Shown: positions 2,682 to 63,500, numbered from the stretch's first letter. The stretch is DNA of 64,000 nt from Nannocystis sp. RBIL2 (GCF_026626745.1 NZ_JAPNJW010000001.1:588311-652310), one strand, 5' to 3'. Notes: generated by a model from the letters alone, not told the origin. Translations and numbers: made by a program.

Positions 2682-2720
2682 ATGTCTCATAGAACATGTC
2701 CAAGGAAACATGGACGATAG
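2682..2720. repeat. palindromic intergenic repeat cluster (ACATGTCC / ACATGGAC modules)
   Basis: Lies immediately after the permease stop. Sequence is aaTGTCTCAtagAACATGTCCaaggaaACATGGAC. It is a member of the dispersed GGACATGTCC family. Confidence 0.6.
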
Positions 2721-2912
2721 GACAGCACCCCACTCGGACCTGAGCACCCGCTCCGCCGGGCACGTGGCCTCCGGTGCGAGGACCACCACCGAGCGGCCTC
2801 TGGAGGAGTGAGCTCGGCGAGTCCCGCAGGGTGGCTCACGCGGACCGCCGCGACCGTCCGCATTTCCGATCGACGTCTGTCAGGCTTCCGCCGCGCCGGG
2901 CAACTCCCGGAC

Positions 2913-4403
2913 ATGCCCCTTCGCACGCCTTCGCTTCGCACCCTGCTCGGTTTCGCCTTCACCCCCGCGCTCCTGCTCGCGAGCGGCGCGGCCTGTGACG
3001 TCGAGCCCGAGGCCGACATCGACGAGCTCGCGGCAGACGACGAGATCGCGCCCCGCTCGCTGACCCTCGAGCCCAACGATCCGCTCTACCATTCGGGACA
3101 GAAGTGGCACTACGGCGCCATCTCCTTGCCCGAGGCCTGGTGGCTGACCACCGGCTCGCCCGCGGTCACCATCGCCATCGCCGACAGCGGCACGCTCCCT
3201 CACTCGGAGCTCACCTGGTCGAGCGGCTACGACTTCTTCGTCGGCGACCCCGACCCGACCGATCCGGGGGACTTTCACCACGGCATCCACGTGGCAGGCA
3301 CCCTCGCCGCGGCCGCGAACAACGGCGTCGGCGGCGCGGGCATCTGCTGGGGTTGCAAGCTCCGTCCGATCCGCGTCAAGCAATCCGGCGGCGGCGCCCA
3401 GGTCGGCGACCCCGGGATGAACGAGCCGACCACCACGCTGCTCGCCCGCGCGATCCGCTACGCGGCCGGCCTGCCGACCGACAACGGCCGAGGCGAGACG
3501 GTGCAGGCCAGCTCGCGCGCCGATGTCATCAACATCAGCATCGGCAACCTGGCGCAGCCGTGCCCGGCCGACCTCAAGGACGCCATCGACAAGGCCTCGG
3601 AGGCCGGCACCGTGGTGGTGGTCGCGGCGGGGAACGGCGACTCCGGGACCACCTGGCCGCCGAGCCCCGACTTCAACGCCTCCAATTATCTGTGGCCGAG
3701 GTGCCAGAACCCCGACCTGATCGTGGTCACCGCGGTCGACGCATTCGGCAACGCCGAGCCTTACGCCCTGCAGTCCAACCCCCTCGCCAAGTACCCCGGC
3801 ATCACGATCGCCGCCCCGGGCGGCTCGGCGGTGAACGGCCAGGCCGGCAACGGCGCCCTCCTCGGCTGCCCCTCCGATCCGACCCAAACCGGCACCCACG
3901 GCGTCGTGTCGACGTGGATCCCCTACGCGCAGACCGGCCCGCAGTGCCACCGCCACTGGGCCGGCACGTCGATGGCGGCGCCGCACGTGAGCGGCGTGGT
4001 CGGCCTGATGCGCGCCCGCAACCCCGCGCTGACGGCGTCGCAGATCAAGCAGATCCTCGTGAAGACTGCCAAGCCCATCCCGTGCACGAACTGCGGCGCC
4101 GGTATGGTCAATGCCTTCGGCGCCGTCCAGGCCTCGACCTTCACCCTGTCGATCACGTGTGAGTCGACCGGCGGCGGCGGCTATGCATGCACCTCGTCGC
4201 CGACCGGGCTCGGGCCGTGGACCGCCACCTGGCAGGGCGTCCTGAACGCCGCGGTCAACCCGGCCTACGCCAACAACCCCACGACCACCCACGGCACCTG
4301 CACCGTGAACACACAGGCGCGGGTGCGCGCGACCCTCACCGACGCGCTCGGCCGCACCGCGATCGCCGAGGACTCCTTCCTCTGCAGCCAGCTCCCGCCG
4401 TGA
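2913..4403 (+). CDS. S8 family subtilisin-like serine protease, lipoprotein
   Basis: A signal peptide plus lipobox (LLASGAAC) is present. The catalytic triad is seen in D (AIADSG), H (HGIHVAGT) and S (GTSMAAPHVSG). Confidence 0.85.
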   Translation: MPLRTPSLRTLLGFAFTPALLLASGAACDVEPEADIDELAADDEIAPRSLTLEPNDPLYHSGQKWHYGAISLPEAWWLTTGSPAVTIAIADSGTLPHSELTWSSGYDFFVGDPDPTDPGDFHHGIHVAGTLAAAANNGVGGAGICWGCKLRPIRVKQSGGGAQVGDPGMNEPTTTLLARAIRYAAGLPTDNGRGETVQASSRADVINISIGNLAQPCPADLKDAIDKASEAGTVVVVAAGNGDSGTTWPPSPDFNASNYLWPRCQNPDLIVVTAVDAFGNAEPYALQSNPLAKYPGITIAAPGGSAVNGQAGNGALLGCPSDPTQTGTHGVVSTWIPYAQTGPQCHRHWAGTSMAAPHVSGVVGLMRARNPALTASQIKQILVKTAKPIPCTNCGAGMVNAFGAVQASTFTLSITCESTGGGGYACTSSPTGLGPWTATWQGVLNAAVNPAYANNPTTTHGTCTVNTQARVRATLTDALGRTAIAEDSFLCSQLPP

Positions 4404-4404
4404 T

Positions 4405-4455
4405 GAGTCTCTAAGGACATGTCTATTTCAACATGTCCTCATGGACATACCTCTA
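4405..4455. repeat. palindromic intergenic repeat cluster (GGACATGTC modules)
   Basis: Sequence is TCTCTAAGGACATGTCtatttcaACATGTCCtcATGGACAT. It sits directly after the protease stop and abuts the left end of the IS630 element. Confidence 0.65.
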
Positions 4456-4569
4456 GTACAGCCTGCCCAAAGTTTTCCAGGGGTTCATGCGAGCTGCTCC
4501 CGTCCTGGATCCACCGCCAGCACGGTCTGGGCGTCGGAATAAGCGAGGCGCGAAAACGATCTCGTCGGT

Positions 4570-5676
4570 GTGCCAGCCCCGCGAGCGCAACGGCTTCGGG
4601 TGGCGCCTTCGGTCCGGGAGGAGCTGAAGGCGCTGGCTCGGAGTGGGCGCAGCGAGGCGCGCCTCGTGCTTCGGGCGAGGCTCGTGCTCCTCGCCGCCGA
4701 GGGTCACTCGAACCAGGAGATTGCGCGGAGATTGGGCTGCCACGTGGATACGGTGAGGGTGTGGCGTGGGCGCTTCGCGCGTGATGGGCGGCTCGTGACG
4801 CTCGAGGATCGTCCCCGAAGTGGGCGACCTCCTCGGGTATCGCCGGCGACGCGCTGCAAGCTCATCAAGCTCGCCTGTGACAAGCCTGCCAGGCATGGTC
4901 AACAGACTCGTTCGACATGGACATACGCGACGTTGGCGAGGCGCCTGCTTCAGGAGACAGGTATCGGGCTCAGCGTGTCCGAGGTGGGGCGAATCCTGCG
5001 CAACGAGGACTTTCGGCCGCACAAGATGAGGCTCTGGCTGCACAGCCCCGATCCCGATTTCTGCCGCAAAGTTCAGCGCATCTGCGACCTCTACCATCAT
5101 CCCCCAGACGGAGCTCACGTGCTCTGCGTCGACGAGAAGACCGGCATGCAGGCGCTCGGACGGAGATTTCCCAGCAAGCTCCCCGCGCCCGGTCGCGCGG
5201 GCCGTTTCGAGTTCGAGTACGTCCGCCGCGGTACCTGGTCGCTGTTCGCGGCCTTCGACATCCGCACCGGCGAGGTCCTCGGCGAGTGCAAGCCGCAACG
5301 ACGAGCCGAGGACCTCATGGACTTCATGGAGGGCCTTGCCCGCAAGTATCCTACCGGCCAGATCTACGTCGTCTGGGACAACCTCAACATCCACTACGAC
5401 GGTGCGGACTACCGTTGGACCCGCTTCAACCGGCGCCACGGCGACCGCTTTCACTTCGTGTACACGCCCATCCATGCCTCGTGGGTCAACCAGATCGAGA
5501 TCTGGTTCTCGCTACTGCAGCGCCGCGTCCTCCGCTACGCCGACTTTCCCTGCGCCGGAGCCATGCCCCGCGCCGTGATGAACTTCATCCGGCGCTGGAA
5601 CCGCGACGAAGCGCACCCGTTCAACTGGACCTTCCGCGGCCACTTCGTCCACACTCAGCGGCGGCACGCCGCATGA
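4570..5676 (+). CDS. IS630 family transposase (HTH + DDE_3 domain)
   Basis: N-terminal HTH (HSNQEIARRLGCHVDTVRVWR). DDE region motifs: DEKTGMQAL ... VVWDNLNIH ... WVNQIEIWF. Confidence 0.9.
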   Translation: MPAPRAQRLRVAPSVREELKALARSGRSEARLVLRARLVLLAAEGHSNQEIARRLGCHVDTVRVWRGRFARDGRLVTLEDRPRSGRPPRVSPATRCKLIKLACDKPARHGQQTRSTWTYATLARRLLQETGIGLSVSEVGRILRNEDFRPHKMRLWLHSPDPDFCRKVQRICDLYHHPPDGAHVLCVDEKTGMQALGRRFPSKLPAPGRAGRFEFEYVRRGTWSLFAAFDIRTGEVLGECKPQRRAEDLMDFMEGLARKYPTGQIYVVWDNLNIHYDGADYRWTRFNRRHGDRFHFVYTPIHASWVNQIEIWFSLLQRRVLRYADFPCAGAMPRAVMNFIRRWNRDEAHPFNWTFRGHFVHTQRRHAA

Positions 5677-5993
5677 GCCGTCCACGCACCACCCGCAACG
5701 CCGCTGCGAAGTCGGACGACGACGCTCGCGCTGTCGAGCAGTTCCTGCGCCAACACCAGGATCTCGCACACCTCCGCGTCCGCCATCGCGCCCCGCTCAT
5801 CACCCTCGAGTCCGGCCCCGCTGACGATCCGGTCCTCCACGCGCGCCTGCGCCGCCTCGCCGCCAACTTGTGGCAGCTGGAGATGGCCACCCACACCGGG
5901 CGCTGGGAACCAACCCCCTTCCGCGCCTCCCGCGAGGAGCTCCTCGAACTGCTCCTCGGAAACTTCGGCTGGACCCTCGCCGAGAGGGCCTAG
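5673..5993 (+). CDS. hypothetical protein encoded inside the IS630 element
   Basis: Its ATG overlaps the transposase stop in an ATGA arrangement. The 106-aa product shows non-random composition. It lies between the transposase and the right IR. Confidence 0.4.
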   Translation: MSRPRTTRNAAAKSDDDARAVEQFLRQHQDLAHLRVRHRAPLITLESGPADDPVLHARLRRLAANLWQLEMATHTGRWEPTPFRASREELLELLLGNFGWTLAERA

Positions 5994-6029
5994 CAACTCC
6001 TGGAGAACTTTGGGCCGGCTGTACGCCCG

Positions 6030-6511: not shown

Positions 6512-6550
6512 CGGCGGCAGCTGTCTTCAAGGACAGCTTCCGCCGCTCCC
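6512..6550. repeat. CTGTCTTC..GGACAG palindromic repeat, copy 1
   Basis: Sequence is CGACGGGATCGGCGGCAGCTGTCTTCAAGGACAGCTTCCGCC. It is a direct repeat of the copy at 7410-7460 and flanks gene 6601-7233. Confidence 0.6.
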
Positions 6551-6600: not shown

Positions 6601-7233
6601 TCACAGCTTGCTCCACTCCTCGGCGGGCGTCGGCGCGGGGGCCGTGGGCCAGTAGTAACGGTCGGGGCGCGCGGTCATGTCGAGGCGGAGCACGCCGGTC
6701 ACGGTGGCCCTGACGCCGCGGCGGGTGTTGTCGAGCGGGCGCGTGAGCTCGGAGCCGTCGGTCTTCACGTCGACGACCCGGCCGCCCTCGAAGGTCACGC
6801 GCATGGCAGTGTCGTACTCGTCGTTGCACTTCTCGGTGCCGGCGATCTGGTCGGGAAAGACCCGGCCGTCAGCGAGCGTGAGGTCGAACAGGAACCAGTT
6901 GTACTTGTTGGAGGCGCCGTAGCGGCAGTGCGTCACGACCTCGCGCACCTCGCCGAACCACAGACGGGCGTTGGCGGCGGCCTGGGGGATGATCCCGGGC
7001 CACCAGCTCGAGTCGAGCTCGCCCGTCTCGTTGCCGTGGCCCTTCTCGAGCCCGTCGATCCGCTCGTTGAACAGCGCCACGATCTTGGGGTTGGACGTAT
7101 CGCCGGGCATCTTCGGCGGATAAAACTGCGCCGGCAACTTCATGCTGCCAGTCATCACCAGCACCGCGCCACCGATCGCTATCACCGCGAGGCTGGCGAC
7201 GATGCCCACGACGATCTGCGTACCCTGCTTCAT
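6601..7233 (-). CDS. membrane-anchored hypothetical protein
   Basis: A GGAGG RBS lies 7 bp upstream of the ATG. N-terminal TM helix (IVVGIVASLAVIAIGGAVLV). The 210-aa product is otherwise non-repetitive. Confidence 0.7.
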   Translation of the reverse strand: MKQGTQIVVGIVASLAVIAIGGAVLVMTGSMKLPAQFYPPKMPGDTSNPKIVALFNERIDGLEKGHGNETGELDSSWWPGIIPQAAANARLWFGEVREVVTHCRYGASNKYNWFLFDLTLADGRVFPDQIAGTEKCNDEYDTAMRVTFEGGRVVDVKTDGSELTRPLDNTRRGVRATVTGVLRLDMTARPDRYYWPTAPAPTPAEEWSKL

Positions 7234-7354: not shown

Positions 7355-7526
7355 CGCGACCATGTCCCAAAAGACATGTCCACATCGTCCTACCACGGGA
7401 CCGCGCCGGCTCGACGGGCCTCGGCGGAATCTGTCTTCCGGGACAGATACCGCCAATCGCCGCAACGGCCGCCTTTGGCGTGAGCGGTCTCTCGGCTCGG
7501 GATCGACATGACATGTCCATTGGGAC
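7355..7526. repeat. composite palindromic repeat cluster
   Basis: GACCATGTCCcaaaaGACATGTCC at 7355-7388. Perfect-arm palindrome ATCTGTCTTCCGGGACAGAT at 7429-7448. GACATGACATGTCCATTGGGAC at 7505-7526. Confidence 0.6.
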
Positions 7527-7541
7527 GGTCGATGGGCGCGC

Positions 7542-8348
7542 TCACGCCTCGCGCACGGTCCAGATCGCCAGCAGCGCCAGCGCGGCCGCCGGGACGGCGT
7601 GCGTCAGCGCCATGCGCGCCGCGGCGCGGACCCACGCGAGCTCCCCGGCCGCGCGGACGTCGAGCGTCTGCACCGCAGCCGCGACGGCGACGAGAACCGC
7701 CAGCACCAGCACGCCGACGAAACCGCATCGGAACCGCGGGCGGCCCGAGGTCGCGGTGAGCACGGCGATCGCCGGCGCGAACCACACCGCCGCCAGGTAC
7801 GACGCCCGGCTCAGCGTGCTGCCGCTGCCGAGCAGCCACGCGAGGCCGAAGGCCAGCGCAGTCACGGCCGCGCCCGCGACCGCGAGCGCCCGCCCGCGGC
7901 TCACCAGCGACGCGCACCACAGCAGCGTCGCGGTCACGCCGAGCGCGAGCGCGGTCGGGCGGCCGAGGACCGGCGTGAGCGCCGGCGTGAGCACATCGCT
8001 ATGCTCGACGGTGAGCCGCGTCGCGGGCTCCGTCACCAGAGTGCGCGCGACCGCGTCGACAGTGGGCTCGTCGGACAGCCCCGCGAAGTTCACCTGGCAG
8101 CGCTCCCCCGCTGCCTCCAGCGCGTACACGAGGTCCGGGTGGCGCGCCTGCAACACCGCGTCGACCTCTCGCGGATCGCAGCGGCCGTCCTCGGCCAGCG
8201 TCGCGAGTGACAGCATCGCCCCGCCCTCGAAGTCGAGCCCGATCGCATCGCCTCCGCGGGCGACGCTCACCAGCGCCGCGACGCTCACGCTCAGCCACGC
8301 GGCAGCGGCGAATGGATGCACCCGTCGACGTCTCGGCGAAGCGATCAC
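7542..8348 (-). CDS. polytopic membrane protein (hypothetical)
   Basis: The 268-aa ORF has 5 or more hydrophobic helices and sits between repeat clusters. Confidence 0.5.
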   Translation of the reverse strand: MIASPRRRRVHPFAAAAWLSVSVAALVSVARGGDAIGLDFEGGAMLSLATLAEDGRCDPREVDAVLQARHPDLVYALEAAGERCQVNFAGLSDEPTVDAVARTLVTEPATRLTVEHSDVLTPALTPVLGRPTALALGVTATLLWCASLVSRGRALAVAGAAVTALAFGLAWLLGSGSTLSRASYLAAVWFAPAIAVLTATSGRPRFRCGFVGVLVLAVLVAVAAAVQTLDVRAAGELAWVRAAARMALTHAVPAAALALLAIWTVREA

Positions 8349-9806: not shown

Positions 9807-9852
9807 GACTATTGAGGGGCATCCGGAGACAACACTGAGGCCGGCGACCGCC

Positions 9853-15581: not shown

Positions 15582-15858
15582 CGGCTGCGAAGGCTAGTGC
15601 CCTCGCCGCGCCGTGTCCACCGGCGGCGCGCATGTCTCGAAGGACATCCGCACGCGCCGAACCCTCCCACGGCCGCGCCCAGGCCCCATCTCCGGCCGGC
15701 GCGCGCAGCACCGGGCGCAGTCACGCCCGGGGTCCCCGGCTAGCGCGCCGCGTGGCTCTCGGGCCGACCGGGGCGAGCCCGCCCGGGCATCCCCGGGCGC
15801 CGCGCGGAGCGTCGCGTGGTATGAGATCGTAGGCTGGCCCAGCCCGCGCGGGAGTCTT

Positions 15859-17867: not shown

Positions 17868-19535
17868 ATGAAACTGTTTGTATGGGGGAGCAGGGGTGCA
17901 TTTGCGACGGTGCTCGTCGCGGCGGGGTGCGGAGACAGCGGCGTCGCGGTCACCACCGACACGGCCACGACCGACACGGCCACGCAGGCGACGACCAGCG
18001 GCGACAGCAGCAGTGAGCCGGCCCCGACCACCGGCGTACCGACCACCGGCGACAGCACGCTCGGCACCGGCGACGCCACTGATTCGACCACCACCACCAC
18101 CGGCGACACCACCACGACCTCGACCACCACCACCTCGGTCGACACCACCGACGCCACCACCACCTCGGTCGACACCACTGATTCGACCAGCACCGGCCCC
18201 GCCCCGTTCTGCGGCGACGGCGACGTCGACGACGGCGAGGCCTGCGACGACGGTCCGGCCAACGCCGACGACGGCAACTGCACCCTCGCCTGCGCCGAGG
18301 CCGTGTGCGGCGACGGCCTCGTCCACGCCGGAGTCGAGGCCTGCGACGACGCCAACGACGACGACGACGACGCCTGCAGCAACACCTGCGCCCTCGCCAC
18401 CTGCGGCGACGGAGCGGTCCAGAACGGCGAGGCCTGCGACGACGGCAACGCCGACGACACCGACGCCTGCCTCTCCACCTGTCTCGCCGCCAGCTGCGGC
18501 GACGGCCACGTCCAGGCCGGCGTCGAGCAGTGCGACGACGGCAACGCCGACGACACCGACGCCTGCCTCTCCACCTGCCAGGCCGCCAGCTGCGGCGACG
18601 GCCACGTGCAGGACGGCGTCGAGGCATGCGACGACGGCAACCCCGACGACGGCGACGCCTGCCTCTCCACCTGCCAGGCCGCCATCTGCGGCGACGGCCA
18701 CGTGCAGGCCGGCGTCGAGCAATGCGACGACGCCGACGCCGACGACAGCGACGCCTGCCTCGCCGATTGCAAGGCCGCCACCTGCGGCGACGGCGTCATC
18801 CACGTCGGCGTCGAGCAGTGCGACGACGGCAACGACATCGACGGCGACGGCTGCACCAGCGCCTGCACCGTCCCGACGACCTGCGAGGACCTGCAAGCGG
18901 CCGTGCCGATGCTGCCGAGCGGCGTCTACGTCGTCGACCCCGACGGCGTCGGTGTCCAGGCCGGCTACCCCGTCTTCTGCGACATGGTCACCGCCGGCGG
19001 CGGCTGGACCTTGCTCGAGCGCAGCCCGCTCGGCGCCCAGACCATCGGCAAGGCGCTCTACAACGACCTCCCCATCAACCCCGCCGACCCCGCCAACGCC
19101 CGCCATCGCCTGTCCAAGGCGCAGATGACCGTCCTGCGCGACCTCTCGGCAGACATGCGCATCGACTGCCGCGGCGACGACTATCTGCTGACCGCTGCCG
19201 GCAACCTGTTCAATGGTCAAGGCGGACCGAACAGCTGCTTCAATTGGTCGCAGGTGCTCTACAAGGAGGCCCGCCTCAAGGGCAACTTCGTGCAGAACAA
19301 GACCATCTGCACCTGGCACGTCGGCACCTCCGAGGGCTGCGCCGGCGCCTGGCACATCGACGAGGTGGCCCAGAACCAGTACGGCTGCGGCCTCGTCAAC
19401 TACCCGTGGAAGGGCGCCGCGGTCGTCAGCCCCTCCGCCGACACCTTCGCCACCGACCCCAACACCCTCGACGCGGTAGGCCCGATCCACGACTGTCACA
19501 AGCCCGGCGCCGCCCGCTGGCTGATGGTCCGCTGA
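17868..19535 (+). CDS. lipoprotein with 7 Myxococcus cysteine-rich repeats and a C-terminal fibrinogen-related-like domain
   Basis: Lipobox LVAAGCGD. Seven tandem CGDGxVxxGxEACDDGNxDDxDACxxxC repeats are present. The C-terminal domain contains [21 protein letters not shown], resembling the fibrinogen-related domain (FReD) CDM-TDGGGWTV motif. Confidence 0.75.
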
Positions 19536-20538: not shown

Positions 20539-21936
20539 ATGTCGATCGCAGGAAAGCCGGGAAATGATCAGCAGACCAGCCTCTCGACGGCTGCAGCGCG
20601 CCAGCTCGCCACGACGACGAAGTCCCCGCCGCAGATGCAGGGAATCTCGTCCCGCTGGCTGCTCAAATTGTTGCCCTGGGTGCACGTCAACGGCGTCTTC
20701 CGCCTCAATCGTCGCCTGAGCTACGCCGTCGGCGACGGCCGCGTCACCTTCTACAACACCGGCGCCAAGATCCAGGTCGTGCCGCTGGAGCTGACCGAGC
20801 TGCCGCTGTTCCGCGGCTACGAGGACCTCGAGGTGCTCAATGTGCTCGCCGGCCGCTTCGTGCAGAAGGAGTTCAAGGCGGGCGACGTGCTGACGCAGAA
20901 GGGCAACGAGGCCAACGAGATGGTCCTCATCGCCCATGGCAAGGTCAACAAGATCGGCACCGGCAAGTACGGCGACGAGAGCGTCCTGGAGACCCTGGCC
21001 GACGGTGATCATTACTCGTACCAGGCGATCCTCGAGTCGCAGGACTACTGGGATTTCACCGCCAAGGCAGTGACCGCCGGCAGCGTCCTGACGCTGTCGC
21101 AGGCGTCCTTCGAGGAGCTGGTCGCCCAGCACCCGTCGCTGCGCAAGCACGTCGACGAGTTCAAGGCGCGCTCGCAGAAGAAGCAGGACAACAGCGGCCA
21201 GGCCGCGATCGAGGTCGCCTCCGGCCACTCGGGCGAGCCCGTGCTGCCCGGCACCTTCGTCGACTACGAGACCTCCCCGCGGGAGTTCGAGCTCAGCGTC
21301 GCCCAGACCGTCCTGCAGGTCCACACGCGCGTGGCCGACCTGTTCAACGACCCGATGAATCAGACGCAGGAGCAGCTGCGCCTGACCGTCGAGGCGCTGA
21401 AGGAGCGCCAGGAGCACGAGCTCATCAACAACCACGAGTTCGGCCTGCTGCACAACGCCGACCTCAAGCAGCGGATTCACACCCGCAGCGGCCCGCCGAC
21501 GCCGGACGACATGGACAACCTGCTGGCGCTGGTGTGGAAGGAGCCGGCCTTCTTCCTCGCCCACCCGCGGACCATCGCGGCGTTCGGCCACGAGTGCAAC
21601 CGCGCGGGCATCTACCCGACGCCGATCGACCTGGGCGGCCATCACGTCCCGTCGTGGCGCGGCGTGCCGATCTTCCCCTGCAACAAGATCCCGATCTCCG
21701 ACACGCGCACCACCTCGATCCTGCTGATGCGCGTCGGCGAGAAGAACCAGGGCGTCATCGGCCTGCACCACAAGGGCATCCCCGACGAGATCGAGCCGAG
21801 CCTGTCGGTGCGCTTCATGGGCATCAACGAGAAGGCGGTCATCTCGTACCTGGTCAGCCTCTACTACTCGGCCGCCGTCCAGATCCCGGACGCGCTCGGC
21901 ATCCTCGAGAGCGTCGAGATCGGCCGCGCCGACTGA
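20539..21936 (+). CDS. family 2B encapsulin shell protein with inserted cNMP-binding domain (Cnb-like), paralog 1
   Basis: An AAGGA RBS lies 7 bp upstream. A CAP-like cNMP-binding domain is present ([46 protein letters not shown]). It is about 60% identical to the next gene. The gene sits immediately upstream of a GPP-methyltransferase / terpene-cyclase pair, as in cnb-mibS-gppmt operons. Confidence 0.7.
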
Positions 21937-32388: not shown

Positions 32389-32404
32389 CTCGCCTCTCCT
32401 TCAT

Positions 32405-32440
32405 TGTGTATCACGTACACAATTTTGTGTATGCTATACA
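32405..32440. promoter_or_regulatory. putative TetR operator pair in divergent promoter
   Basis: Two inverted repeats lie between the divergent hydrolase and tetR starts: TGTGTAtcacgTACACA and TGTGTATgctATACACA. Confidence 0.5.
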
Positions 32441-32450
32441 CAGTCCGTCC

Positions 32451-33224: not shown

Positions 33225-33239
33225 CCCTCTCGCCATGAC

Positions 33240-36710: not shown

Positions 36711-36830
36711 GGTACCTGTCCGAACGGACACCCTCCGTTCGGACACGCCCTGAACCTCATCCGCCTGCCCGGTGGGTTGTCTCTCAAGACATGTCCATTA
36801 ACACATGTCTCGGAGGCCACGTCATCGCCT
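36711..36830. repeat. terminator-like hairpin plus palindromic repeat cluster
   Basis: Hairpin GTCCGAACGGAcacccTCCGTTCGGAC at 36722-36748. Then GTTGTCTCTCAAGACATGTCCattaACACATGTCTCGG at 36776-36812. Confidence 0.6.
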
Positions 36831-39189: not shown

Positions 39190-39340
39190 CGCGCGCGATG
39201 ATCTTTCAGGACATGCACCTCGAGGCATGTCCTGAGAGACAGACAATCGGTCCGTCCTCACGGCAACGACATGCCTTCAGGACATCCCCAAGCGCCCCCT
39301 GTTCCGCCGAACACATGTCCCTAAAGACATATCACTAAAG
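39190..39340. repeat. largest palindromic intergenic repeat cluster (≥6 GGACATG modules)
   Basis: Contains CAGGACATGCAcctcgaGGCATGTCCTGAGAGACAGacaatcggtccgtcctcacggcaacGACATGCCTTCAGGACATCC...ACACATGTCCctaaaGACATAT. Confidence 0.65.
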
Positions 39341-44825: not shown

Positions 44826-44860
44826 GAACCGGTCTCAGGGGACATGTCCCTTCAGCGCGT
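44795..44860. repeat. palindromic intergenic repeat cluster (hairpin ATGTCCCTGAGAaccggTCTCAGGGGACAT)
   Basis: Sequence is CGGACATGTCCCCggagCCATGTCCCTGAGAACCGGTCTCAGGGGACATGTCCC, at the convergent ends of the MTase and lipoprotein genes. Confidence 0.65.
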
Positions 44861-47793: not shown

Positions 47794-48174
47794 ATGCCCA
47801 AGGGATCTTGCCTCTGCCGCGCCGTGACCTTCGAGGTCACCGGCCCGTTGCCCCCGCCGAACGCGTGTCATTGCTCGCAGTGCCGCAAGCAGTCGGGCCA
47901 TTACTGGGCGTCGACCGACGTCGACCGCGCGGCCCTGACGATCCGCGGCGAGGACCGCCTGACCTGGTTCCGCTCCTCGGACAAGGTGCGCCGCGGCTTC
48001 TGCTCGACCTGCGGCTCGTGGCTGTTCTGGGACCCGATCTTCGCCGCGAAGATCGCCGTCGCCATGGGCGCCTTCGATGCGCCGACGCACGCCCGCCTGG
48101 CCATGCACATCCACGTGGCCGACAAGGGCGACTACTACGACATCGCCGACGACCTGCCGCAGCACCCGCATTGA
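47794..48174 (+). CDS. GFA family protein (glutathione-dependent formaldehyde-activating / CENP-V-like Zn-binding)
   Basis: Conserved Cys pattern: CLC...CHCSQC...CSTCGSWLFW. AGGAG RBS. Confidence 0.8.
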   Translation: MPKGSCLCRAVTFEVTGPLPPPNACHCSQCRKQSGHYWASTDVDRAALTIRGEDRLTWFRSSDKVRRGFCSTCGSWLFWDPIFAAKIAVAMGAFDAPTHARLAMHIHVADKGDYYDIADDLPQHPH

Positions 48175-48266
48175 CGCCGCTGCGCACCCGCGACCGCCTC
48201 GTGCGGCCCGGCCTCGATCGGCGCCGCGAGTCCGGGCGGCGGGCCCCGTGCTACGTTGACTCGCGC

Positions 48267-49199
48267 ATGCGTCGTCCGCCCCTGCTCCTCGCCCTCGCCT
48301 GCCTGCTCGCCTGCAAGACCTCCACGTCGGGCCGGGCCAAGGCTCCCGCGGCGACCGAGTCGGGCGCCTTCGGCACCCCCATCGCCGGGGCGGACGCCTC
48401 GCCGCTCGATCCGACCACCACGACGTCGGGCGCCTTCGCCAACCCCGGGGGCCCGCGGCCCGGTCGCACCGACGAGCGCGAGCGGATCGGCGACGTGCGC
48501 GCCCCCGAAAACGCCGCCCCGCTTGGGCCGCCCGGCTCCTCCAAGGACCGCCCGCTCCTCGCCTGCGGCACCACCGGCTCCTACGTCGCGGTCGCCGACG
48601 CCGAGTGCGAGGACGGCACCCGCCCGTTCGACGGCGACATCCCCAGCGGCATGAAGGCCCGCCGCGGCAACGTCGGCGCCAACAAGGACGGCCACGTCAT
48701 CGACCTGTACGAAGTGCCATGTCCCGAAGGCCCGCAGAAGATCTTCGTCGACATGTACGCCTGCGACCGCGCCCAGCCGTCGCGCTCCGAGTTCGAGCGC
48801 GACACCTACGTGCGCGACGCCTTCCTCGCCGGCGACCACGCCCGCTTCAGCGAGCGCTGCTTGGCCGAGCAGGCCCGCGGCCCCGACCGCGTGTCGCTGA
48901 TGCTGCAGAGCTGCCTGCCGGCCATGCCCACGGCCCTGCGCGAGCAGGGCAAGGTCGCCGAGGCCCACGGCTGGCTGGCCCGCTACTGCGGCGGCACCCC
49001 GCCGCCGACCGCCGAGCAGCCCAAGCGGTGGGTCTACTTCCGCAACGTGCTCGAGGCCCTCGACGCCCTGCGCGAGCAGCAGAACCGCGCCGCCAGCGAC
49101 CGCGCCTACGAGCGCAAGACGGTCGCCGCCGAGTACGCCAAGGTCTGCGACGTCGACCTCAAGGCCTACGAGCGCTGGCTCAAGGCCAACCCCGAGTGA
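48267..49199 (+). CDS. hypothetical lipoprotein
   Basis: Lipobox LLACKTS. 310-aa product. Confidence 0.6.
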   Translation: MRRPPLLLALACLLACKTSTSGRAKAPAATESGAFGTPIAGADASPLDPTTTTSGAFANPGGPRPGRTDERERIGDVRAPENAAPLGPPGSSKDRPLLACGTTGSYVAVADAECEDGTRPFDGDIPSGMKARRGNVGANKDGHVIDLYEVPCPEGPQKIFVDMYACDRAQPSRSEFERDTYVRDAFLAGDHARFSERCLAEQARGPDRVSLMLQSCLPAMPTALREQGKVAEAHGWLARYCGGTPPPTAEQPKRWVYFRNVLEALDALREQQNRAASDRAYERKTVAAEYAKVCDVDLKAYERWLKANPE

Positions 49200-49250
49200 C
49201 ATGTCGCTCGGGACATGTCACTTAGAGCATGTCCCTCCGGACATCACCAC
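49195..49250. repeat. palindromic intergenic repeat cluster
   Basis: Sequence is TGACATGTCGCTCGGGACATGTCACttagaGCATGTCCCTCCGGACATCAC, at the convergent ends of the lipoprotein gene and rpiA. Confidence 0.65.
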
Positions 49251-49885
49251 GACCACGGCGGGTCGTCGCCGACGATCACGAGATCGGCGGGCCGGCGGGC
49301 GAACAGGCCGACGCTGACGACCCCGGCGATCTGGTTCAGCGCCGCCTCGAGCGCCTCGGGCTCGTCGATCACGAGGCCGTGGACGTCGACGATCCAGCCG
49401 CCGTTGTCGGTGACCACGCCCTCGCGCCACACGGGCGTGCCGCCGGTCATCGCGGCGATCGTGCGGGCCACCAGTTCGCGCGCCATCGGGACGACCTCGA
49501 CCGGCAGCGGGGAGCCGCCGAGCCGCGGCACCCGCTTGCCCGGGTCGATGATGCACACGAACCTCTCCGACGCCGCCGCCACGATCTTCTCGCGCGTCAG
49601 CGCCGCCCCGCCCCCCTTGACCAGGCGGCGCTGCGGGTCGCAGGCGTCGGCGCCGTCGACGTAGAGCGGCAGCGGCCCGGTGGTGTTGAGGTCGAGCACC
49701 ACGATCCCGCGGGCCCGCAGGCGCGCCGCCGTCTGCTCCGAGCTGGCGACCGCGCCGGCGATCCTGGTCGCAGGCAAGCCGTCGATGAAGTGGGCCACGG
49801 TCGAGCCGGTGCCCACGCCGATCACCGTGCCTTCGGGCACCAGCTCCAGCGCCGCGCTGGCGGCCCGCTGCTTCGCGTCGAGCAT
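49244..49885 (-). CDS. rpiA: ribose-5-phosphate isomerase A
   Basis: Motifs [20 protein letters not shown] and [11 protein letters not shown]. Confidence 0.9.
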
Positions 49886-54350: not shown

Positions 54351-54364
54351 GCGACCGATCTGTC

Positions 54365-54520
54365 CCTCGGGACAGCCATCATGCGACCGTCCCCGCGGCG
54401 CCTCGACGAGGCTCGCCGGGGACGCGGCGTTTCAGGCTCCGCCAGCGCCTCGGGACATGCTCTCGGAGGCATGTCCCTTCAAACATGCGCTGAAGGGCAT
54501 GTCCGAAGCGCCATGCCCCG
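54365..54520. repeat. composite palindromic repeat cluster
   Basis: ATCTGTCCCTCGGGACAGCC at 54371-54390. Then GGGACATGCtctcggagGCATGTCCCTTCAaacatgcgcTGAAGGGCATGTCC at 54457-54510. Confidence 0.65.
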
Positions 54521-54526
54521 GGCTTC

Positions 54527-57500
54527 TTACTTCGGGTACCCGGCCAGCCAGACCCGCATCGTGGCCTGCTCGGGCAGATACGCGGGGCCGAGGCTCTGCA
54601 GGGTGAGCAGGGCCTGGTCGACCAGGCCGCGGCCTTCCGGGGCGAGCACGCCGGACACGGCGGCGCGGGCGCGGGCGAGGCCGAAGCGGGCCAGCGCGAG
54701 CTCGAGGATGTCGCTGTCGCTCACCGCCGAGTAGATGGCGATGGCGCGCTCGTAGTGGCCGATGGCCGTCCTGGGGTCGTTGCGCGCGAGAGCGAGGTCG
54801 CCGAGGCGGAGGCGGATCAGCGCGGCCTCGCTGCTCTCGACCTTCGGATCGCGCTCGCGCAGGCTCTGGGCCTGTTGCAGCCAGCTCGCCGCCTCGTCGA
54901 GGCGCCCGGCGAGGCGGTGGGCCTCGGCGATCCGGCGCATCGAGTCGGCCAGCAGCGGGATGTCGGAACGCATGCGGGCCTTGCGGATCTCCAGGGCGCG
55001 CTGGAACTGCGCCAGCGCGCCCTCGGGGTCGCCGGCGCGCAGCAGCATGTCCCCGTGCTGGTCGTCGACGTCGGCGCTGCGCAGCGCGTCGGCGCCGAAG
55101 CTCTGCTCGGCGAGCACGTGCGCCTGGCGGAAGTGGCGCTCGGCGGCGGCGAGGTCGCCCCGGCAGGTAGCCGCCTTCCCGAGGCCGAGCACGGGCATGA
55201 AGGCCGCCGAGTCGAGCGAGGTCTCGCTCGCGCCCAGCACCTGCAACGCGCGGCGGTAGCTGGCGTCCGCGTCGTCGCAGCGGCGCTGGTCCACCGCCAG
55301 ATCGCCGATGCCCGACAGCACCCAGTGCAGGTCGGGGGCGTTCGGCCCGAGCAGCTCGCTCTGCAGGGCCAGGGCCCGCTGGAAGTAGCCGGCGGCCTCG
55401 CGGAAGCGGTGCAGCCCGGTGAAGCCGATGCCGAGGTTGATCGCCAGCAGGGCGACGTGCGGGTGCTTGGGCCCGAGGCTCGACTCGGCGGCGGTGAAGG
55501 CCGCGCGCAGCTGGCGGACGCCCTCGAGGGCGTTGTCGCTGCCGACCAGGGCCAGGCCGAGGTTGCCGAGCGCGTAGACGACCTGGGGGTGGTCCTCGCC
55601 GAGGACGGCCCGACGCGCGTCGATCGAGGCGACGAAGTACTCGCTCGCCCGCTGGATCTGGCCGAGCACCGCGTAGGCGATGCCGATGTTGTTGAGGTGG
55701 TCGCCGCGCAGCTCGCGGCCCTCGCGGGTGGTCTCGACGCGGGCGACGAGGCCGTCGATCAGCGGGGCGTCGCTCAGGACCTCGCGGCTCTGCTGCAGGC
55801 GGGCGGCGCGGACGAAGTCGCGGCGGGTGGCGAGCGCGGCGGCGACGACGTCGTGGCCGCTGGCGAGCGCGGTCTGCAGGGCCCCGGTGAGCAGGTCGAG
55901 GGCCTCGGTGTGGCGACCGGCCTCGCTGAGCAGGCTGCCGCGGCGCAGGCCGATCTCGGCGACCAGCGGCGGATAAGCGAGGTCGCCGAGCTCGATGCCG
56001 TCGACCAGCGCGAGGCCCTGGTTGAACTGGCCCGCGAGCTCGTGCGCCTGGGCCTCGGCCAGCACGCCGCGCAAGCCGGCGACGCGCGCGGCGCTGGCGG
56101 GATCGTCGGGCGGCGGGACGGCCTCGGTGAGGGCGCGAGTGTCGTCGCAGCCGACCAGCGCCGGCAGGTTGGCCGCCGCGGCGCCGGCGTTGCCGACGAC
56201 CTCGGCGTCGGCGCGCTGCAAGATCGCCACGAACGCCGCGAGGCTCTTGTGCCGCTGGTCGAGGCACGCGGTCCGCAAGTCGAACAGGTGCATCGAGGCC
56301 CGGCCCTGCTGATGGGCCCGACAGGCGTCGACGCGCATGCCGACGAGCTCGCCGGCGTAGGCGTCGAGGCGGGCCTTCACGCGCGTCCAGGTGTCCTCGG
56401 CGTACGGCACGCCGGTGTTCAGCAAGCCCGCGCGCGCGGCCGCGGCCGCGGGCCCGTCCCACAGCCCGGCGAGCTCGTCGTCGGCGCCCTCGCAGGCGTC
56501 GCCGGCCGGGTAGTACGCGGCCGCGGTGACGCCGGCGGCGGTGAGCAGGCCGGCAAGGCCGAAGGTCGCGATCCACGGGACGCTCCGGCGCTCGAGCGTG
56601 CGCTCGATCGCCGCCAGCAGGGCGGGCATCGACGGGAACCGGCGCTTCGGATCGACCGCGAGGCCGCGGGTGACGATCTGAAGCAGGGCGGCCGGGACGT
56701 GGCTGCCCGACGGCGGCTGGCGGATGGCCCCGCGCGTCACGGCGTCGGTCAGCGCCAGGAGGCTGCTGGTGTCGAACGGCGAGACGTCGTAGAGCGCCTC
56801 GTAGAGGCTGACGCAGAAGCTGAACTGGTCGCTCTTCTCGGTGGCCGGCTGGCCGAGGAGCTGCTCCGGGGCCATGTACGCGGGGGTTCCGACGACCGCG
56901 CCGGTGTGCGTGAGGTGGTTGTCGAGCGAGCTCGTCAGGGTGCTGTGCAGCGCCGGCGGCGGCTCCTCCTCGACCTCGCGGTCGACCGCGCGGGCGAGGC
57001 CGAAGTCGAGGACTTTGACCACGCCGTCGCTGCCGACGATCACGTTGGCCGGCTTGAAGTCGCGGTGGACCAGGCCGGCGGCGTGGGCCACCGCGAGGCC
57101 GCGGCCGGCCTGCAGCAGCGTCTCGGCGCGCGCGCGCCAGGGCCGGGCCGCCTTCAACCAGTTGGCGAGGTTCTGCCCGCGCACGAACTCCATGGCGATG
57201 AACACCTCGCCGTCGTGGTAGCCGACCTCGTGGACCGCGACGATGTTGGGATGCGAGACGCGGGCCATCGCCTGGGCCTCGCGCAGCAGGCGTTCACGCG
57301 CCTGCGGCTCGCGCTGGTTCGAGTCGTTGCGCAGGATCTTGACGGCGACCTTGCGATCGAGCCGGTCGTCGTAGGCGGCATAGACGATGCCCATCGCGCC
57401 CTCGCCGAGCCGCTCGAGGATGGTGAAGCGACCGATGTGGGCCAGCAGCGAGGGGATCGGGCTGGTGATGGGACGCGCGGGCGGTTCGTGGACCGGCGGT

Positions 57501-57619
57501 TCGGCGCGCTGCGTGACGACGAGGTCGGCGAGGTCGGAAGACCCGGGCGGCTGAGGTGGCGCGACCTGGGTGACCGGAGCGATGACGGTTCGATCGAGTG
57601 CGGTCTTCGACAACGCCAT
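54527..57619 (-). CDS. Ser/Thr protein kinase with C-terminal TPR repeats
   Basis: Kinase subdomains (GEGAMGIVY, VAVKIL, HRDFKPANV, DFGLA, GTPAYMAPE) are followed by about 600 aa of TPR-like repeats. Confidence 0.85.
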   Translation of the reverse strand: MALSKTALDRTVIAPVTQVAPPQPPGSSDLADLVVTQRAEPPVHEPPARPITSPIPSLLAHIGRFTILERLGEGAMGIVYAAYDDRLDRKVAVKILRNDSNQREPQARERLLREAQAMARVSHPNIVAVHEVGYHDGEVFIAMEFVRGQNLANWLKAARPWRARAETLLQAGRGLAVAHAAGLVHRDFKPANVIVGSDGVVKVLDFGLARAVDREVEEEPPPALHSTLTSSLDNHLTHTGAVVGTPAYMAPEQLLGQPATEKSDQFSFCVSLYEALYDVSPFDTSSLLALTDAVTRGAIRQPPSGSHVPAALLQIVTRGLAVDPKRRFPSMPALLAAIERTLERRSVPWIATFGLAGLLTAAGVTAAAYYPAGDACEGADDELAGLWDGPAAAAARAGLLNTGVPYAEDTWTRVKARLDAYAGELVGMRVDACRAHQQGRASMHLFDLRTACLDQRHKSLAAFVAILQRADAEVVGNAGAAAANLPALVGCDDTRALTEAVPPPDDPASAARVAGLRGVLAEAQAHELAGQFNQGLALVDGIELGDLAYPPLVAEIGLRRGSLLSEAGRHTEALDLLTGALQTALASGHDVVAAALATRRDFVRAARLQQSREVLSDAPLIDGLVARVETTREGRELRGDHLNNIGIAYAVLGQIQRASEYFVASIDARRAVLGEDHPQVVYALGNLGLALVGSDNALEGVRQLRAAFTAAESSLGPKHPHVALLAINLGIGFTGLHRFREAAGYFQRALALQSELLGPNAPDLHWVLSGIGDLAVDQRRCDDADASYRRALQVLGASETSLDSAAFMPVLGLGKAATCRGDLAAAERHFRQAHVLAEQSFGADALRSADVDDQHGDMLLRAGDPEGALAQFQRALEIRKARMRSDIPLLADSMRRIAEAHRLAGRLDEAASWLQQAQSLRERDPKVESSEAALIRLRLGDLALARNDPRTAIGHYERAIAIYSAVSDSDILELALARFGLARARAAVSGVLAPEGRGLVDQALLTLQSLGPAYLPEQATMRVWLAGYPK

Positions 57620-60597: not shown

Positions 60598-60609
60598 CGC
60601 GCCGCCGAG

Positions 60610-60700
60610 CGCGGCGAATCACATGTCTCTCGGGACAGCCTCGCGCGACATCGTCCGCGTCTCTCCGTTCCTGTCCCCGAGAACAGGTCGATCCTCGCGC
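60610..60700. repeat. palindromic/direct repeat cluster
   Basis: ACATGTCTCTCGGGACAGCC, then two copies of CTCGCGCGACATCGTCCGC. An inverted pair CTCGGGACAG / CTGTCCCCGAG is also present. Confidence 0.55.
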
Positions 60701-61785: not shown

Positions 61786-61794
61786 GCCGCGCGG

Positions 61795-62922
61795 CTACAG
61801 CCCGGCCGCCGCCGCGACCGCCGCAGTCGTCGCCTTGAGCACGTCGGTAGCGAACGCGTGGTCGAGCTTGTCCGGAGTGTCGAGCCCGAGCGTGCAGTGA
61901 TAGGCCGGGTTGCGGAACACCCCGGTGTCGAACACGTGCAGCGCCGGAAATCCGCGCTCCCAGAAGCTGCGGTGGTCCGACATGCTCAGCACCCCGAATG
62001 CGTCGTCGTCGAGCTTCTCCGCGTCCGTCAGCGTCATCACCCCCGTCAGCCGGCCGAGGCCCTCCGCCTGCGCCTCCAGCTCGAGCGCGAACGGCTCCGC
62101 CGACGCGTCGGCGACCACCGCGATGAAGTCGGCGCGCCCCTTGTTGGCGGTCAGCTCGTCGGCCAGCCCGGGGAACCGCTCCGCCAGCGGCCCCGGGAAG
62201 ATCTGCGAGTGCTCCGCCGCGCTCGCATAGCCGATCATGTCGAAGTTGAACGCCACCGCCAGCTTCGCGCCCGTGAACGTCTGCGCGAACGCCCGCGAGC
62301 CGCGCAGCCCCGACTCCTCCTCGTCCCAGCAGGCCACCATCAGCGTGCGCGGCAGCTTCGCCTGGCCGAGCACGCGCGCCACCTCGAGCGCCCCGGCCAC
62401 CCCGCTCGCGTTGTCGTCGGCGCCGGGGCAGCCGCTGACATGATCGTAGTGGGCCGCCAGCAGCACCACCTCGGACGCCGCCGCAGTGCCCTCGCGCGTC
62501 CCGATCACGTTGATCCCGCTGCCGTAGTCCTGGCGCTGCACCACGAAGCCCGCCTGCTCGAGCTCCGTCGCGCAGCGGTCCTGCACCTTCTGCCAGTGGA
62601 TCGATCCGGGCGGCCGCGACTGGGCCATGAACGCGACGTCCTCGGCCCAGCGAACCGGGTCGACGCAGTCCATCAGCGCCTCCGGGCTGTCGTGACCGCA
62701 GCGGGACGCGATCCCGGCGTCGGGCCCCGGCCCCGTGGTCGTCGGCGCCGCCGTCGTCCCGCTCGAGCTGCTCGAGCTGGTCGAACTGCTGATCCCGCCC
62801 GGCGCGCCCGTCTCCGTCGAACCACTCGTCGTCGCCGCGTCGCTCTCGCCGCTCGTCGCCGGCGAGGGGCACGCACCGAGTCCGAGCCACATCACCCCGA
62901 CCGCACCGCGGACCGCTCGCAT
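61795..62922 (-). CDS. M28 family zinc peptidase (aminopeptidase), lipoprotein
   Basis: Lipobox LGLGACPS. M28 metal ligands are HYDHVSGCPGADDNASGVAGALEVAR and DEEESGLRGS. The start may be at 63003. Confidence 0.8.
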   Translation of the reverse strand: MRAVRGAVGVMWLGLGACPSPATSGESDAATTSGSTETGAPGGISSSTSSSSSSGTTAAPTTTGPGPDAGIASRCGHDSPEALMDCVDPVRWAEDVAFMAQSRPPGSIHWQKVQDRCATELEQAGFVVQRQDYGSGINVIGTREGTAAASEVVLLAAHYDHVSGCPGADDNASGVAGALEVARVLGQAKLPRTLMVACWDEEESGLRGSRAFAQTFTGAKLAVAFNFDMIGYASAAEHSQIFPGPLAERFPGLADELTANKGRADFIAVVADASAEPFALELEAQAEGLGRLTGVMTLTDAEKLDDDAFGVLSMSDHRSFWERGFPALHVFDTGVFRNPAYHCTLGLDTPDKLDHAFATDVLKATTAAVAAAAGL

Positions 62923-62982
62923 CACCGTCACTATAGCACTCGCCCGGCCCCACGCCGGTGGATCGCCCGCCGCCGATCGCTT

Positions 62983-63444
62983 ATGACCGGCGTCATGGCC
63001 CACCCCCTCACCGAACTCACAGGCTCATGGACCGGCCCCGCGCGCACCTGGCTCGACCCGACTGGCGGCGAGCCGGACGTCGGCGACTGGCGCGTCCAGA
63101 TCGAGTCGCTGCTCGACGGCCGCTACGCGCGCCTCCGCTACGACGGCGTGTGCACCGGCAAGCTGCACCACGGCGAGATGACCCTCGGCGTCGACGACCA
63201 CGAGCACACCCTGTACTGGATCGACACCTTCCACACCGGCGCCTCCCCCTTGTGGTCGACCGGGCCCGCGGGCCCCGCCGTCTCGGTCCTCGGCAGCTAC
63301 CGCGCCGGCGACCAGCGCTGGGGCTGGCGCACCGCCTTTCGCCGCGACGGCGACGAGCTCGTGATCGAGGCCACCAACATCGAGCCGAGCGGCGAGGAGA
63401 CGCGCGCCATCGAGGTCCGCCTCACCCGCGTCACAGCTGCCTGA
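62983..63444 (+). CDS. hypothetical protein (small beta-rich, DUF1579-like)
   Basis: 153-aa ORF with a non-random sequence. Confidence 0.5.
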   Translation: MTGVMAHPLTELTGSWTGPARTWLDPTGGEPDVGDWRVQIESLLDGRYARLRYDGVCTGKLHHGEMTLGVDDHEHTLYWIDTFHTGASPLWSTGPAGPAVSVLGSYRAGDQRWGWRTAFRRDGDELVIEATNIEPSGEETRAIEVRLTRVTAA

Positions 63445-63500
63445 TCGACCATGCCCCCCGGGACATGCCCGTTCGGCCATGCCCGCACGGACATGTCCCT
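63445..63500. repeat. palindromic intergenic repeat cluster
   Basis: Sequence is CATGCCCCCCGGGACATGCCCgttcgGCCATGCCCGCACGGACATGTCCCTCAAGGGCAGG, lying between convergent gene ends. Confidence 0.6.

Follow-up and report, generated by a model that had tools for sequence, protein, structure and literature searches.

What is the short palindrome that recurs in the spacers of Nannocystis sp. RBIL2, and what might it do for the genes beside it? The question is raised by a stretch of 64,000 nucleotides (GCF_026626745.1, NZ_JAPNJW010000001.1:588311-652310; hereafter the window, with positions counted from its first nucleotide), in which an initial annotation had noted clusters of the self-complementary decamer GGACATGTCC, together with CTGTC..GACAG modules, at no fewer than 14 intergenic loci. 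A single motif family is indeed present at all 14 positions listed. We show here that it forms strictly phased tandem arrays of a 14-nucleotide (nt) unit, and we propose, with slightly better than even confidence, that these are Nannocystis-specific extragenic palindromic hairpin arrays that act as bidirectional barriers or insulators at gene 3′ ends, are vertically inherited and grow by 14-bp duplication.

The family stands well above what base composition alone would yield in a window of 71% G+C. Exact copies of GGACATGTCC number three against 0.11 expected, copies with at most one mismatch 13 against 2.0 (a count reached by no shuffle), and pairs of phased units, CATGYCC-N7-CATGYCC, eight against 0.00, while an 18-nt weight matrix for which other Nannocystis loci alone served as training set returns 27 matches of at least 10 bits where 0.6 are expected. 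All but four of these 27 (23) fall in intergenic DNA, which accounts for 15% of the window according to our own gene map based on G+C content at third codon positions (GC3). Shuffle controls and position counts thus agree with the enrichment and intergenic 3′ bias claimed for the decamer. The clusters, too, are real; what their first description overlooked is a strict head-to-tail phase. In the window 19 pairs of CATG tetramers lie 14 bp apart, 10 lie 28 bp apart and five 42 bp apart, with 0-3 pairs at neighbouring distances, and across 60 Nannocystis loci the counts at 14, 28, 42 and 56 bp are 349, 221, 136 and 70, against about 5-15 at other distances. Given this exact 14/28/42-bp phase, the decamer clusters are tandem arrays of a 14-bp unit. 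The many short six-frame open reading frames (ORFs) whose translations open with MS or MP, suspected from the outset of being repeat artefacts, begin at the ATG inside CATG-TCC or CATG-CCC.

The arrays have the architecture C-(TGYCC-N4-GGRCA)n-G. The 14-nt unit is its own reverse complement and can be read as a mini-hairpin whose 5-bp stem is capped by a loop of 4 nt; once the loci of the window are aligned on this unit, each is seen to consist of tandem units close to CATG-YCC-NNNN-GGR. CATG, and with it the decamer GGACATGTCC, is the junction of two head-to-tail neighbouring units. Logos aligned on the array edges show that conservation ends sharply one unit beyond the first and last CATG, and that the outermost cores are not CATG but CTG at one edge and CAG at the opposite one, which adds an extra closing C:G pair. 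The CTGTC..GACAG modules were thus rightly assigned to the family: they are single units, standing alone or at the end of an array, closed by that C:G pair. Base choice at the four loop positions is almost unconstrained, with 56% A/T despite a genome of 71% G+C, and the loops are highly diverse, without preference for UUCG or GNRA tetraloops. Arrays comprise 2-8 units, or from 1 to 8 or more if single-unit loci are counted. All eight two-unit CATGYCC matches of the window lie on the plus strand, as an intrinsic polarity would have it, yet over 61 loci this asymmetry follows the local GC skew (rho = -0.51, p = 3e-5) and not the gene strand (rho = 0.09), and we therefore regard it as a compositional effect on a symmetric element.

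This anatomy fits none of the familiar classes of tandem or mobile repeat. Local duplication, as in a simple minisatellite or variable-number tandem repeat, is seen, but a single core is shared by about 180 loci per Mb, and the spacers differ from unit to unit; clustered regularly interspaced short palindromic repeats (CRISPR) combine repeats of 23-50 nt with unique spacers of comparable length, whereas the period here is 14 nt and only 4 nt per unit vary; and miniature inverted-repeat transposable elements have terminal inverted repeats (TIRs), target-site duplications, a length of about 100-600 bp and an origin from insertion sequences (IS), whereas these arrays are periodic, 28-110 bp long and devoid of any conserved flank past the terminal CTG or CAG.

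The position of the arrays relative to genes is equally constrained, and the placement at 3′ ends and convergent junctions proposed by the initial annotation is borne out by both our own gene calls and those of NCBI. Among arrays with at least three cores, our calls place 52 in convergent and 37 in co-directional spacers, none in any of the 77 divergent spacers available, and eight apparently within ORFs; with the NCBI calls for five orthologous 20-kb loci, units occur in 17 of 24 convergent spacers versus one of 23 divergent ones. In co-directional spacers the first CATG lies at a median of about 20 nt past the upstream stop and about 150 nt ahead of the next start. The outer edge of the array is found 0-6 nt past the stop in about 42% of cases, and in 12 of 114 (about 10%) the terminal C-TG-A core itself provides the TGA stop. 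A general rule that stop codons stand in register with the array does not hold, there being only a modest peak (phase 12, 19 cases vs. eight expected). Several convergent spacers, those at 49197-49246, 44826-44859 and 63445-63499 among them, are filled exactly from stop to stop. As for the apparent exceptions within genes, Pfam domains span the array in two of five array-bearing long ORFs checked, and arrays in ORFs are either rare in-gene copies or mark gene boundaries missed by a crude caller. Three-core arrays of this kind stand at 6964-7005 of locus L007 and 1867-1908 of locus L009, where the domains are those of methylmalonyl-CoA mutase and an AMP-binding enzyme.

The suggestion that neighbouring copies could fold into interlocking hairpins is upheld by their folding energies, with z-scores from -1.5 to -6.1 over both strands: 10 of 14 folds score below -2.8, and of the five arrays folded on both strands, four stay below this value on each. 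A single long nested hairpin is a frequent outcome, because all cores are mutually complementary. Where the flanking genes are co-directional, folding is better by 3.0 kcal/mol on the sense strand (37 vs. 20 arrays, p = 0.014), the sense-strand G skew is +0.042 in arrays as against -0.03 in neighbouring spacer and -0.04 in coding DNA, both of which are C-rich, and at pair 5:14 T:G is found 36 times vs. 12 for C:A. Together, the half-sites at array ends, the better folding of the sense strand, its G enrichment and the T:G excess favour a single-stranded, transcript-level role.

How far does the family extend? Arrays are abundant in each of the six Nannocystis species examined; an unselected sample made up of the window and five orthologous, hence not independent, regions (167 kb) contains about 180 of them per Mb, or by extrapolation about 2,000 or more in a genome of 11-13 Mb. 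A scan for three phased CATGTCC units, run on one genome per species, found at least 116 stretches; among the matches listed, about 60 come from Nannocystis or Nannocystaceae (N. pusilla, N. bainbridge, N. radixulma, N. punicea, N. exedens and metagenome-assembled genomes [MAGs] of Nannocystis or Nannocystaceae), and about 55 from other phyla are single near-perfect 14-bp or 7-bp microsatellites unrelated to the family. A phage origin finds no support either, the scan of viral contigs having returned unrelated perfect microsatellites only. In four related myxobacterial genomes of similar G+C content, sampled over 20 kb each around sterol-reductase orthologues (67-78% identity), the periodicity was not found, with 0-1 pairs at 14 bp per 20 kb vs. 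4-8 per Nannocystis species. No Rfam family matches the arrays, even at E<=1, in keeping with the failure to recognise the sequence at first sight, and our search of the literature on intergenic repeats in Nannocystis or other myxobacteria found none, the decamer appearing only as a p53 half-site. The family is thus apparently undescribed and, it appears, restricted to Nannocystis and its closest relatives. In a Myxococcota MAG (CAXXZL010000007.1, 11057-11156 of locus L128), an ERG4 orthologue is followed by a convergent spacer taken up entirely by four tandem units, each 24 nt long and organised around the palindromes GCGATCGC and GACGTC, from which we conclude that phased palindromic gene-end arrays with different, lineage-specific cores may occur in other myxobacteria.

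Comparison of orthologous sites shows how the arrays persist. The spacer between a DNA methyltransferase (MTase) gene and a 208-aa gene is 34 nt long with the same three cores in all six species. Synteny around rpiA is likewise kept in the six, and the array at this site has 3, 4, 4, 2, 5 and 0 cores, being absent where the neighbouring gene differs. An array between a kinase gene and a PD40-repeat gene comprises 5-6 units in three species, where all 20 core positions compared are unchanged and about half of the other array positions vary; every CATG is kept in the N. pusilla and N. exedens orthologues. Between the window strain and N. pusilla, 24% of the non-core positions of this array differ vs. 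5-10% of third codon positions in the two flanking genes. Adjacent units, moreover, share 1.54 of their four variable bases vs. 1.06 in random pairs, and are fully identical in 11% of cases vs. 0.9%, a likeness that points to growth by local tandem duplication. Orthologous persistence, changing unit numbers and the resemblance of adjacent units thus together indicate arrays that are old, vertically inherited and dynamic in steps of 14 bp.

We envisage that an array transcribed just past a stop codon would fold into a chain of hairpins or into one long nested hairpin, and would do so equally from either strand because every core is self-complementary and identical. The folded array would define mRNA 3′ ends and shield them from 3′-to-5′ exonucleases, and where convergent genes are closely packed it would impede read-through from one into the other, in the manner thought to apply to repetitive extragenic palindromic (REP) elements and their bacterial interspersed mosaic elements (BIMEs) and to the mycobacterial TRIT hairpins. 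The active form, we infer, would be RNA, and the effect protection or insulation of the 3′ end; the arrays themselves are inherited at fixed sites and gain and lose units by tandem duplication in 14-bp steps.

Several observations weigh against this proposal. Arrays are not obligatory: the 25 kb between 8300 and 33200, with about 20 genes, contain no convincing one, and this region may have been acquired more recently or be differently organised. The sense strand is favoured to a modest degree, no wobble asymmetry is seen at pairs 6:13 and 7:12, and covariation beyond the consensus is weak. Long perfect palindromes are not the rule, since the loops of neighbouring units are not complementary (1.10 vs. 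1.06 in random pairs), the perfect stems at 39198 and 44794 being exceptions, and in some arrays (e.g., 54442-54525) the units often pair poorly. A purely structural role also leaves unexplained why the same stem sequence should be found at thousands of sites. Finally, only one of 58 arrays carries a T-run (at least five T in the 8 nt downstream, sense strand), which sets them apart from canonical intrinsic terminators with their hairpin and 7-9-nt U-tract. Mycobacterial RNA polymerase requires the U-tract for hairpin termination in vitro (PMC3993855); with the U-tract missing, this requirement makes autonomous transcription termination by the arrays appear doubtful and favours a role as barrier or stabiliser. 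It speaks for the proposal, on the other hand, that hairpin-plus-T terminators in general are not above chance, with six found vs. 4.6 expected in 30-50 kb and all six inside GC3-called coding regions.

Among known systems, the arrays are best read as functionally akin to both REP/BIME elements and TRIT, and as members of neither. The likeness to REP/BIME or terminator-associated repeats that was suggested initially holds insofar as these are dispersed palindromes at 3′ ends and convergent junctions; no homologue of a REP-associated tyrosine transposase (RAYT) was found in the 1.08 Mb searched. REP elements protect upstream mRNA, and affect translation when they lie near a stop codon; both effects are reportedly treated by Liang, Rudd and Deutscher in 2015. 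Like them, the Nannocystis arrays are high-copy extragenic palindromes of 3′ and convergent spacers, absent from promoters, often clustered and lineage-specific in sequence, and in being extragenic palindromes of such spacers they share one defining trait of a REP. They differ in architecture. REPs are 20-40 nt long with a GTAG/CTAC head, alternate in orientation within BIMEs and are linked to a RAYT gene, whereas the Nannocystis units are 14 nt long, strictly head to tail and overlap through the shared CATG junction. In place of a GTAG or CGTC head and a stem of about 10 bp or more we find a 5-7-bp stem and the invariant tetramer CATG, with no GTAG in the logos, and in place of the alternating or inverted doublets of BIMEs and REPINs, units that all run head to tail, each its own reverse complement. 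The uptake sequences of Neisseria (DNA uptake sequence, DUS) and Haemophilus (uptake signal sequence, USS) offer a further parallel, as short sequences kept uniform by a trans-acting system, inverted pairs of which often form hairpins at gene 3′ ends and serve as terminators; but DUS and USS are also abundant within genes, as single copies in either orientation, whereas the Nannocystis motif is nearly confined to 3′ spacers and phased in tandem. With intrinsic terminators the arrays share a stable hairpin just downstream of the gene, and differ from them not only in lacking a U-tract but in a conserved stem sequence and in multiple, phased and mutually complementary units.

The closest parallel lies in TRIT (Tuberculosis Rho-independent terminator motif) of Mycobacterium, a genus-restricted, palindromic and bidirectional element without a canonical U-tract (Gardner et al. 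2011, PMC3152330), which occurs in about 147 copies per genome as a single hairpin whose centre lies about 8 nt inside the coding sequence (PMC3152330). The Nannocystis arrays are likewise genus-restricted, conserved in both sequence and structure, palindromic and hence bidirectional, free of a U-tract and tightly tied to stop codons, and both elements reside in high-G+C hosts poor in classical terminators. Their sequence, however, is unrelated; they are phased 14-nt tandem arrays of 2-8 units with about 2,000 or more arrays per genome by extrapolation, and mostly begin 0-6 nt past the stop, whereas the TRIT centre lies within the coding sequence. Membership in TRIT, which we compared by its published description, is further at odds with a host that belongs to Myxococcota and not to Mycobacterium, and with the lack of an Rfam match at E<=1.

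Sequence conservation led the TRIT authors to suspect an additional factor (PMC3152330), and the best surviving alternative to hairpin barriers is of this kind. A Nannocystis-specific protein would recognise either GGACAUGUCC, as duplex or as hairpin, or else the phased CATG cores and bring about termination or 3′-end processing, with the arrays serving as its binding platforms. We hold this view tentatively, as possible but rather unlikely. It would account for a stem sequence that is uniform across genome and genus, for CATG cores that do not vary between orthologous arrays, even those whose flanking arms are poorly paired, and for the exact 14-nt phase; the absence of the family from the four related genomes sampled fits a lineage-specific partner; and the discoverers of TRIT reasoned likewise (PMC3152330). 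Yet there is no candidate protein and no gene family that recurs beside the arrays, and the invariant core can also be explained by its pairing with both neighbours and by copying during unit duplication. In a fuller version, to which we give the same minor weight, a lineage-specific protein reading phased GGACAUGUCC arrays past stop codons would form part of a factor-assisted system that ends or trims transcripts, with arrays that stand in for the missing canonical intrinsic terminators and renew themselves by 14-nt duplication; if true, this would be a dedicated cis/trans 3′-end system of a type not described in bacteria.

Less probable again is that the arrays are selfish and REP-like, mobilised by a transposase, of the RAYT/Y1 type or another, with CA/TG junctions as its cutting sites; their 3′ location would then merely reflect tolerated insertions. 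High copy number in a single lineage and residence in 3′ and convergent spacers are indeed as in REPs, units of the form TG...CA would restore the phase when inserted at a CA/TG junction, and one array does provide a gene's final codons and stop. But a tblastn search with E. coli TnpA-REP (its identity with PDB 4ER8 verified) gave no match in the 1.08 Mb, of which about 0.7 Mb are from Nannocystis or Nannocystaceae, and no transposase recurs near the arrays, the all-against-all clustering of 406 neighbouring proteins having yielded only kinases, ABC ATPases and histidine kinases. The same orthologous sites are occupied in six species, neighbouring units resemble each other as expected from local duplication and not from import, and there is neither a GTAG head nor any inverted REPIN-style doublet, in units far shorter than those of known REPs.

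We consider it improbable that the arrays act as double-stranded DNA, with a dimeric protein bound to the 10-bp palindrome GGACATGTCC at gene ends and serving as a roadblock, as a topological barrier or to organise the nucleoid. Palindromes of 10 bp that are separated by 4 variable bp, and hence spaced at exactly 14 bp (about 120 degrees on the helix), would suit such a site, as would their invariant CATG and the finding that conservation of YCC over GGR follows GC skew and not gene direction, in line with a twofold symmetric element. Several features of the arrays, however, speak against this scheme: they end in lone half-sites (CTGYCC/GGRCAG), for which a palindrome-binding protein would have no need and which add a closing C:G pair, the stand-alone CTGKCC-N4-GGMCAG hairpins contain no palindromic decamer, the sense strand is biased in G content and folding, and in one orthologous hairpin a stem pair has changed from G:C to T:A. 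Chance matches, base composition or ordinary 14-bp microsatellites, for which the sporadic near-perfect CATGTCC microsatellites of many phyla and two viral contigs might be adduced, are refuted by shuffles that expect 0.00-2 matches where 8-27 are observed, by some 180 recurring loci per Mb with spacers that differ in each unit, by a position strictly biased relative to genes, and by the nature of the matches outside Nannocystaceae, which are lone perfect repeats, one per locus.

Along the window the family takes forms that range from lone hairpins to arrays of five cores. The first array (2681-2725) has three units with AATG, CATG and CATG cores and a CAG end, and overlaps the stop codon of the gene at 2190-2681; the next, of three to four units (4404-4455), begins 1 nt past the stop of an S8 peptidase gene (2913-4403). 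A convergent spacer holds, at 6513-6544, a single extended hairpin of the CTGTC..GACAG type, GGCGGCAGCTGTC-TTCAAG-GACAGCTTCCGCC, which has a paralogue in GGCGGAATCTGTC-TTCCGG-GACAGATACCGCC at 7423-7454. Nearby lie two phased units, CATGTCCCAAAAGA and CATGTCCACATCGT (7361-7388), and a degenerate unit, CATGACATGTCCATTGGGAC (7507-7530), which comes within a few bases of the stop codon of gene 7542-8288 (minus strand). The isolated unit CATGTCTCGAAGGACATC at 15631-15648 is the only good match of the window in a divergent spacer. At 33220-33289 four in-phase CATG cores and a terminal CCTG core, which holds the TGA stop of a TetR gene, fill the 62-nt convergent spacer between TetR and GST genes. Two stand-alone units, CTGTCCGAACGGACA and TCCGTTCGGACA (36716-36745), follow 7 nt past the stop of the gene 35036-36709, and the convergent spacer at 36776-36817 contains three units with GTTG, CATG and CATG cores. 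The three-unit array 39198-39244, 15 nt past the stop of the gene 37762-39183, folds into a perfect 15-bp stem (z = -6.1); it shares its spacer with the single unit GACATGCCTTCAGGACATCC (39266-39288), and two decaying units, CATGTCCCTAAAGA and CATATCACTAAAG, are found at 39310-39340.

Further along the window, the array 44794-44856, with cores at 44801, 44815 and 44843 and hence one 28-nt double unit, fills the 34-nt convergent spacer at the end of the MTase gene (43551-44825), and three units at 49197-49246 span the gap exactly from the TGA of the gene 48171-49199 to the stop of rpiA (49244-49885, minus strand). A stand-alone hairpin, CTGTCCCTCGGGACAG (54360-54375), lies 9 nt past the stop of the PD40-repeat gene and has orthologues in five of six species, while the five in-phase CATG cores at 54442-54525 adjoin the stop of the Ser/Thr kinase gene (54527-57619, minus strand). 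Two further stand-alone hairpins are CACATGTCTCTCGGGACAG at 60620-60638, 22 nt past the stop of an MFS transporter gene, and CCTGTCCCCGAGAACAGG at 60670-60688. The last array, with four in-phase cores (63446-63505), fills the 55-nt convergent spacer after a DUF1579 gene and has orthologous arrays in N. radixulma and N. bainbridge.

Two of these loci had been singled out for their neighbours. The array at 4404-4455 does mark the insertion point of an IS630-family element (4456-6024), whose first TIR directly adjoins its 3′ side. The TIRs (4456-4485 and 5995-6024) are 30 nt long and 90% complementary, and the DDE_3 transposase is apparently split over ORFs 4933-5676 and 5673-5993. The MTase gene, for its part, does receive its final codons and stop from the repeat, the last eight codons (DMSPEPCP, followed by the stop) lying within array units in all six species. 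The encoded N6_N4 DNA methyltransferase (43551-44825, plus strand) has 424 aa vs. mostly about 575-620 aa in its roughly 65%-identical homologues of other phyla, and since the coding sequence in Nannocystis terminates within array units, its C-terminus may have been truncated or redefined by them. The same gene, taken for an orphan MTase, had inspired the idea of a restriction link through the CATG/RCATGY sites of the decamer. It is, however, a syntenic core gene in six of six species, with an array as neighbour like many other genes, and coding DNA shows no avoidance of CATG (observed/expected 1.24), so that a restriction-modification link is unsupported. CTAG, by contrast, is nearly absent from the coding DNA of the window and 60 Nannocystis loci (410 kb), with seven occurrences vs. 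293 expected (ratio 0.02), a depletion far more extreme than that of any other 4-bp palindrome.

Other features of the window are of separate interest. RpiA (49244-49885, minus strand) is 100% identical to its counterpart in Nannocystis sp. ILAH1, and its nearest named relatives past Nannocystis are not other myxobacteria but Xanthomonadales (Vulcaniibacterium, Thermomonas, Luteimonas and Lysobacter, about 70-73% identity), an affinity that suggests horizontal acquisition. The array-free region 8300-33200 includes genes for an extracytoplasmic function (ECF) sigma factor, a DUF4215 Cys-rich repeat protein and an Lhr helicase as well as an encapsulin/terpene locus, and some of its 3′ ends carry plain, unrelated hairpins (e.g., after 19535 and 23421). 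The DUF4215/myxobacterial Cys-rich repeat gene (17910-19535, plus strand) contains tandem repeats of 96 bp and 192 bp within its coding sequence (TRF score up to 702). A terpene synthase gene (24758-25573, plus strand) is preceded by two tandem SrpI-like encapsulin shell paralogues (20635-21936 and 22066-23421, plus strand), both of which include a cNMP-binding domain, an arrangement that we take to resemble the Family 2B encapsulin-terpene cyclase locus. The only Rfam matches of the window above the gathering threshold, both to Sernc350 ("antisense sRNA", 134 and 110 bits), are antisense to the two encapsulin genes and probably reflect conserved coding sequence rather than a small RNA. In the divergent spacer 32389-32450 upstream of the TetR-family gene, the A/T-rich palindromes TGTGTATCACGTACACA and TGTGTATGCTATACACA, of one family, look like putative operator sites.

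For the study of Nannocystis genomes, the array family flags gene 3′ ends where gene calling is hard, accounts for spurious short ORFs and for odd C-terminal tails such as that of the MTase, and, through its varying unit number, provides a possible strain-typing marker in a genus mined for natural products. More broadly, how transcripts are ended and stabilised in very G+C-rich bacteria without hairpin-plus-U terminators is unsettled, with the mycobacterial TRIT as the best-known hint. The Nannocystis arrays constitute a larger and more regular natural data set, thousands of instances by extrapolation, all built from one 14-nt module and many of them serving two convergent genes, and their range of unit numbers makes questions of dose-response and of sequence vs. 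structure directly testable.

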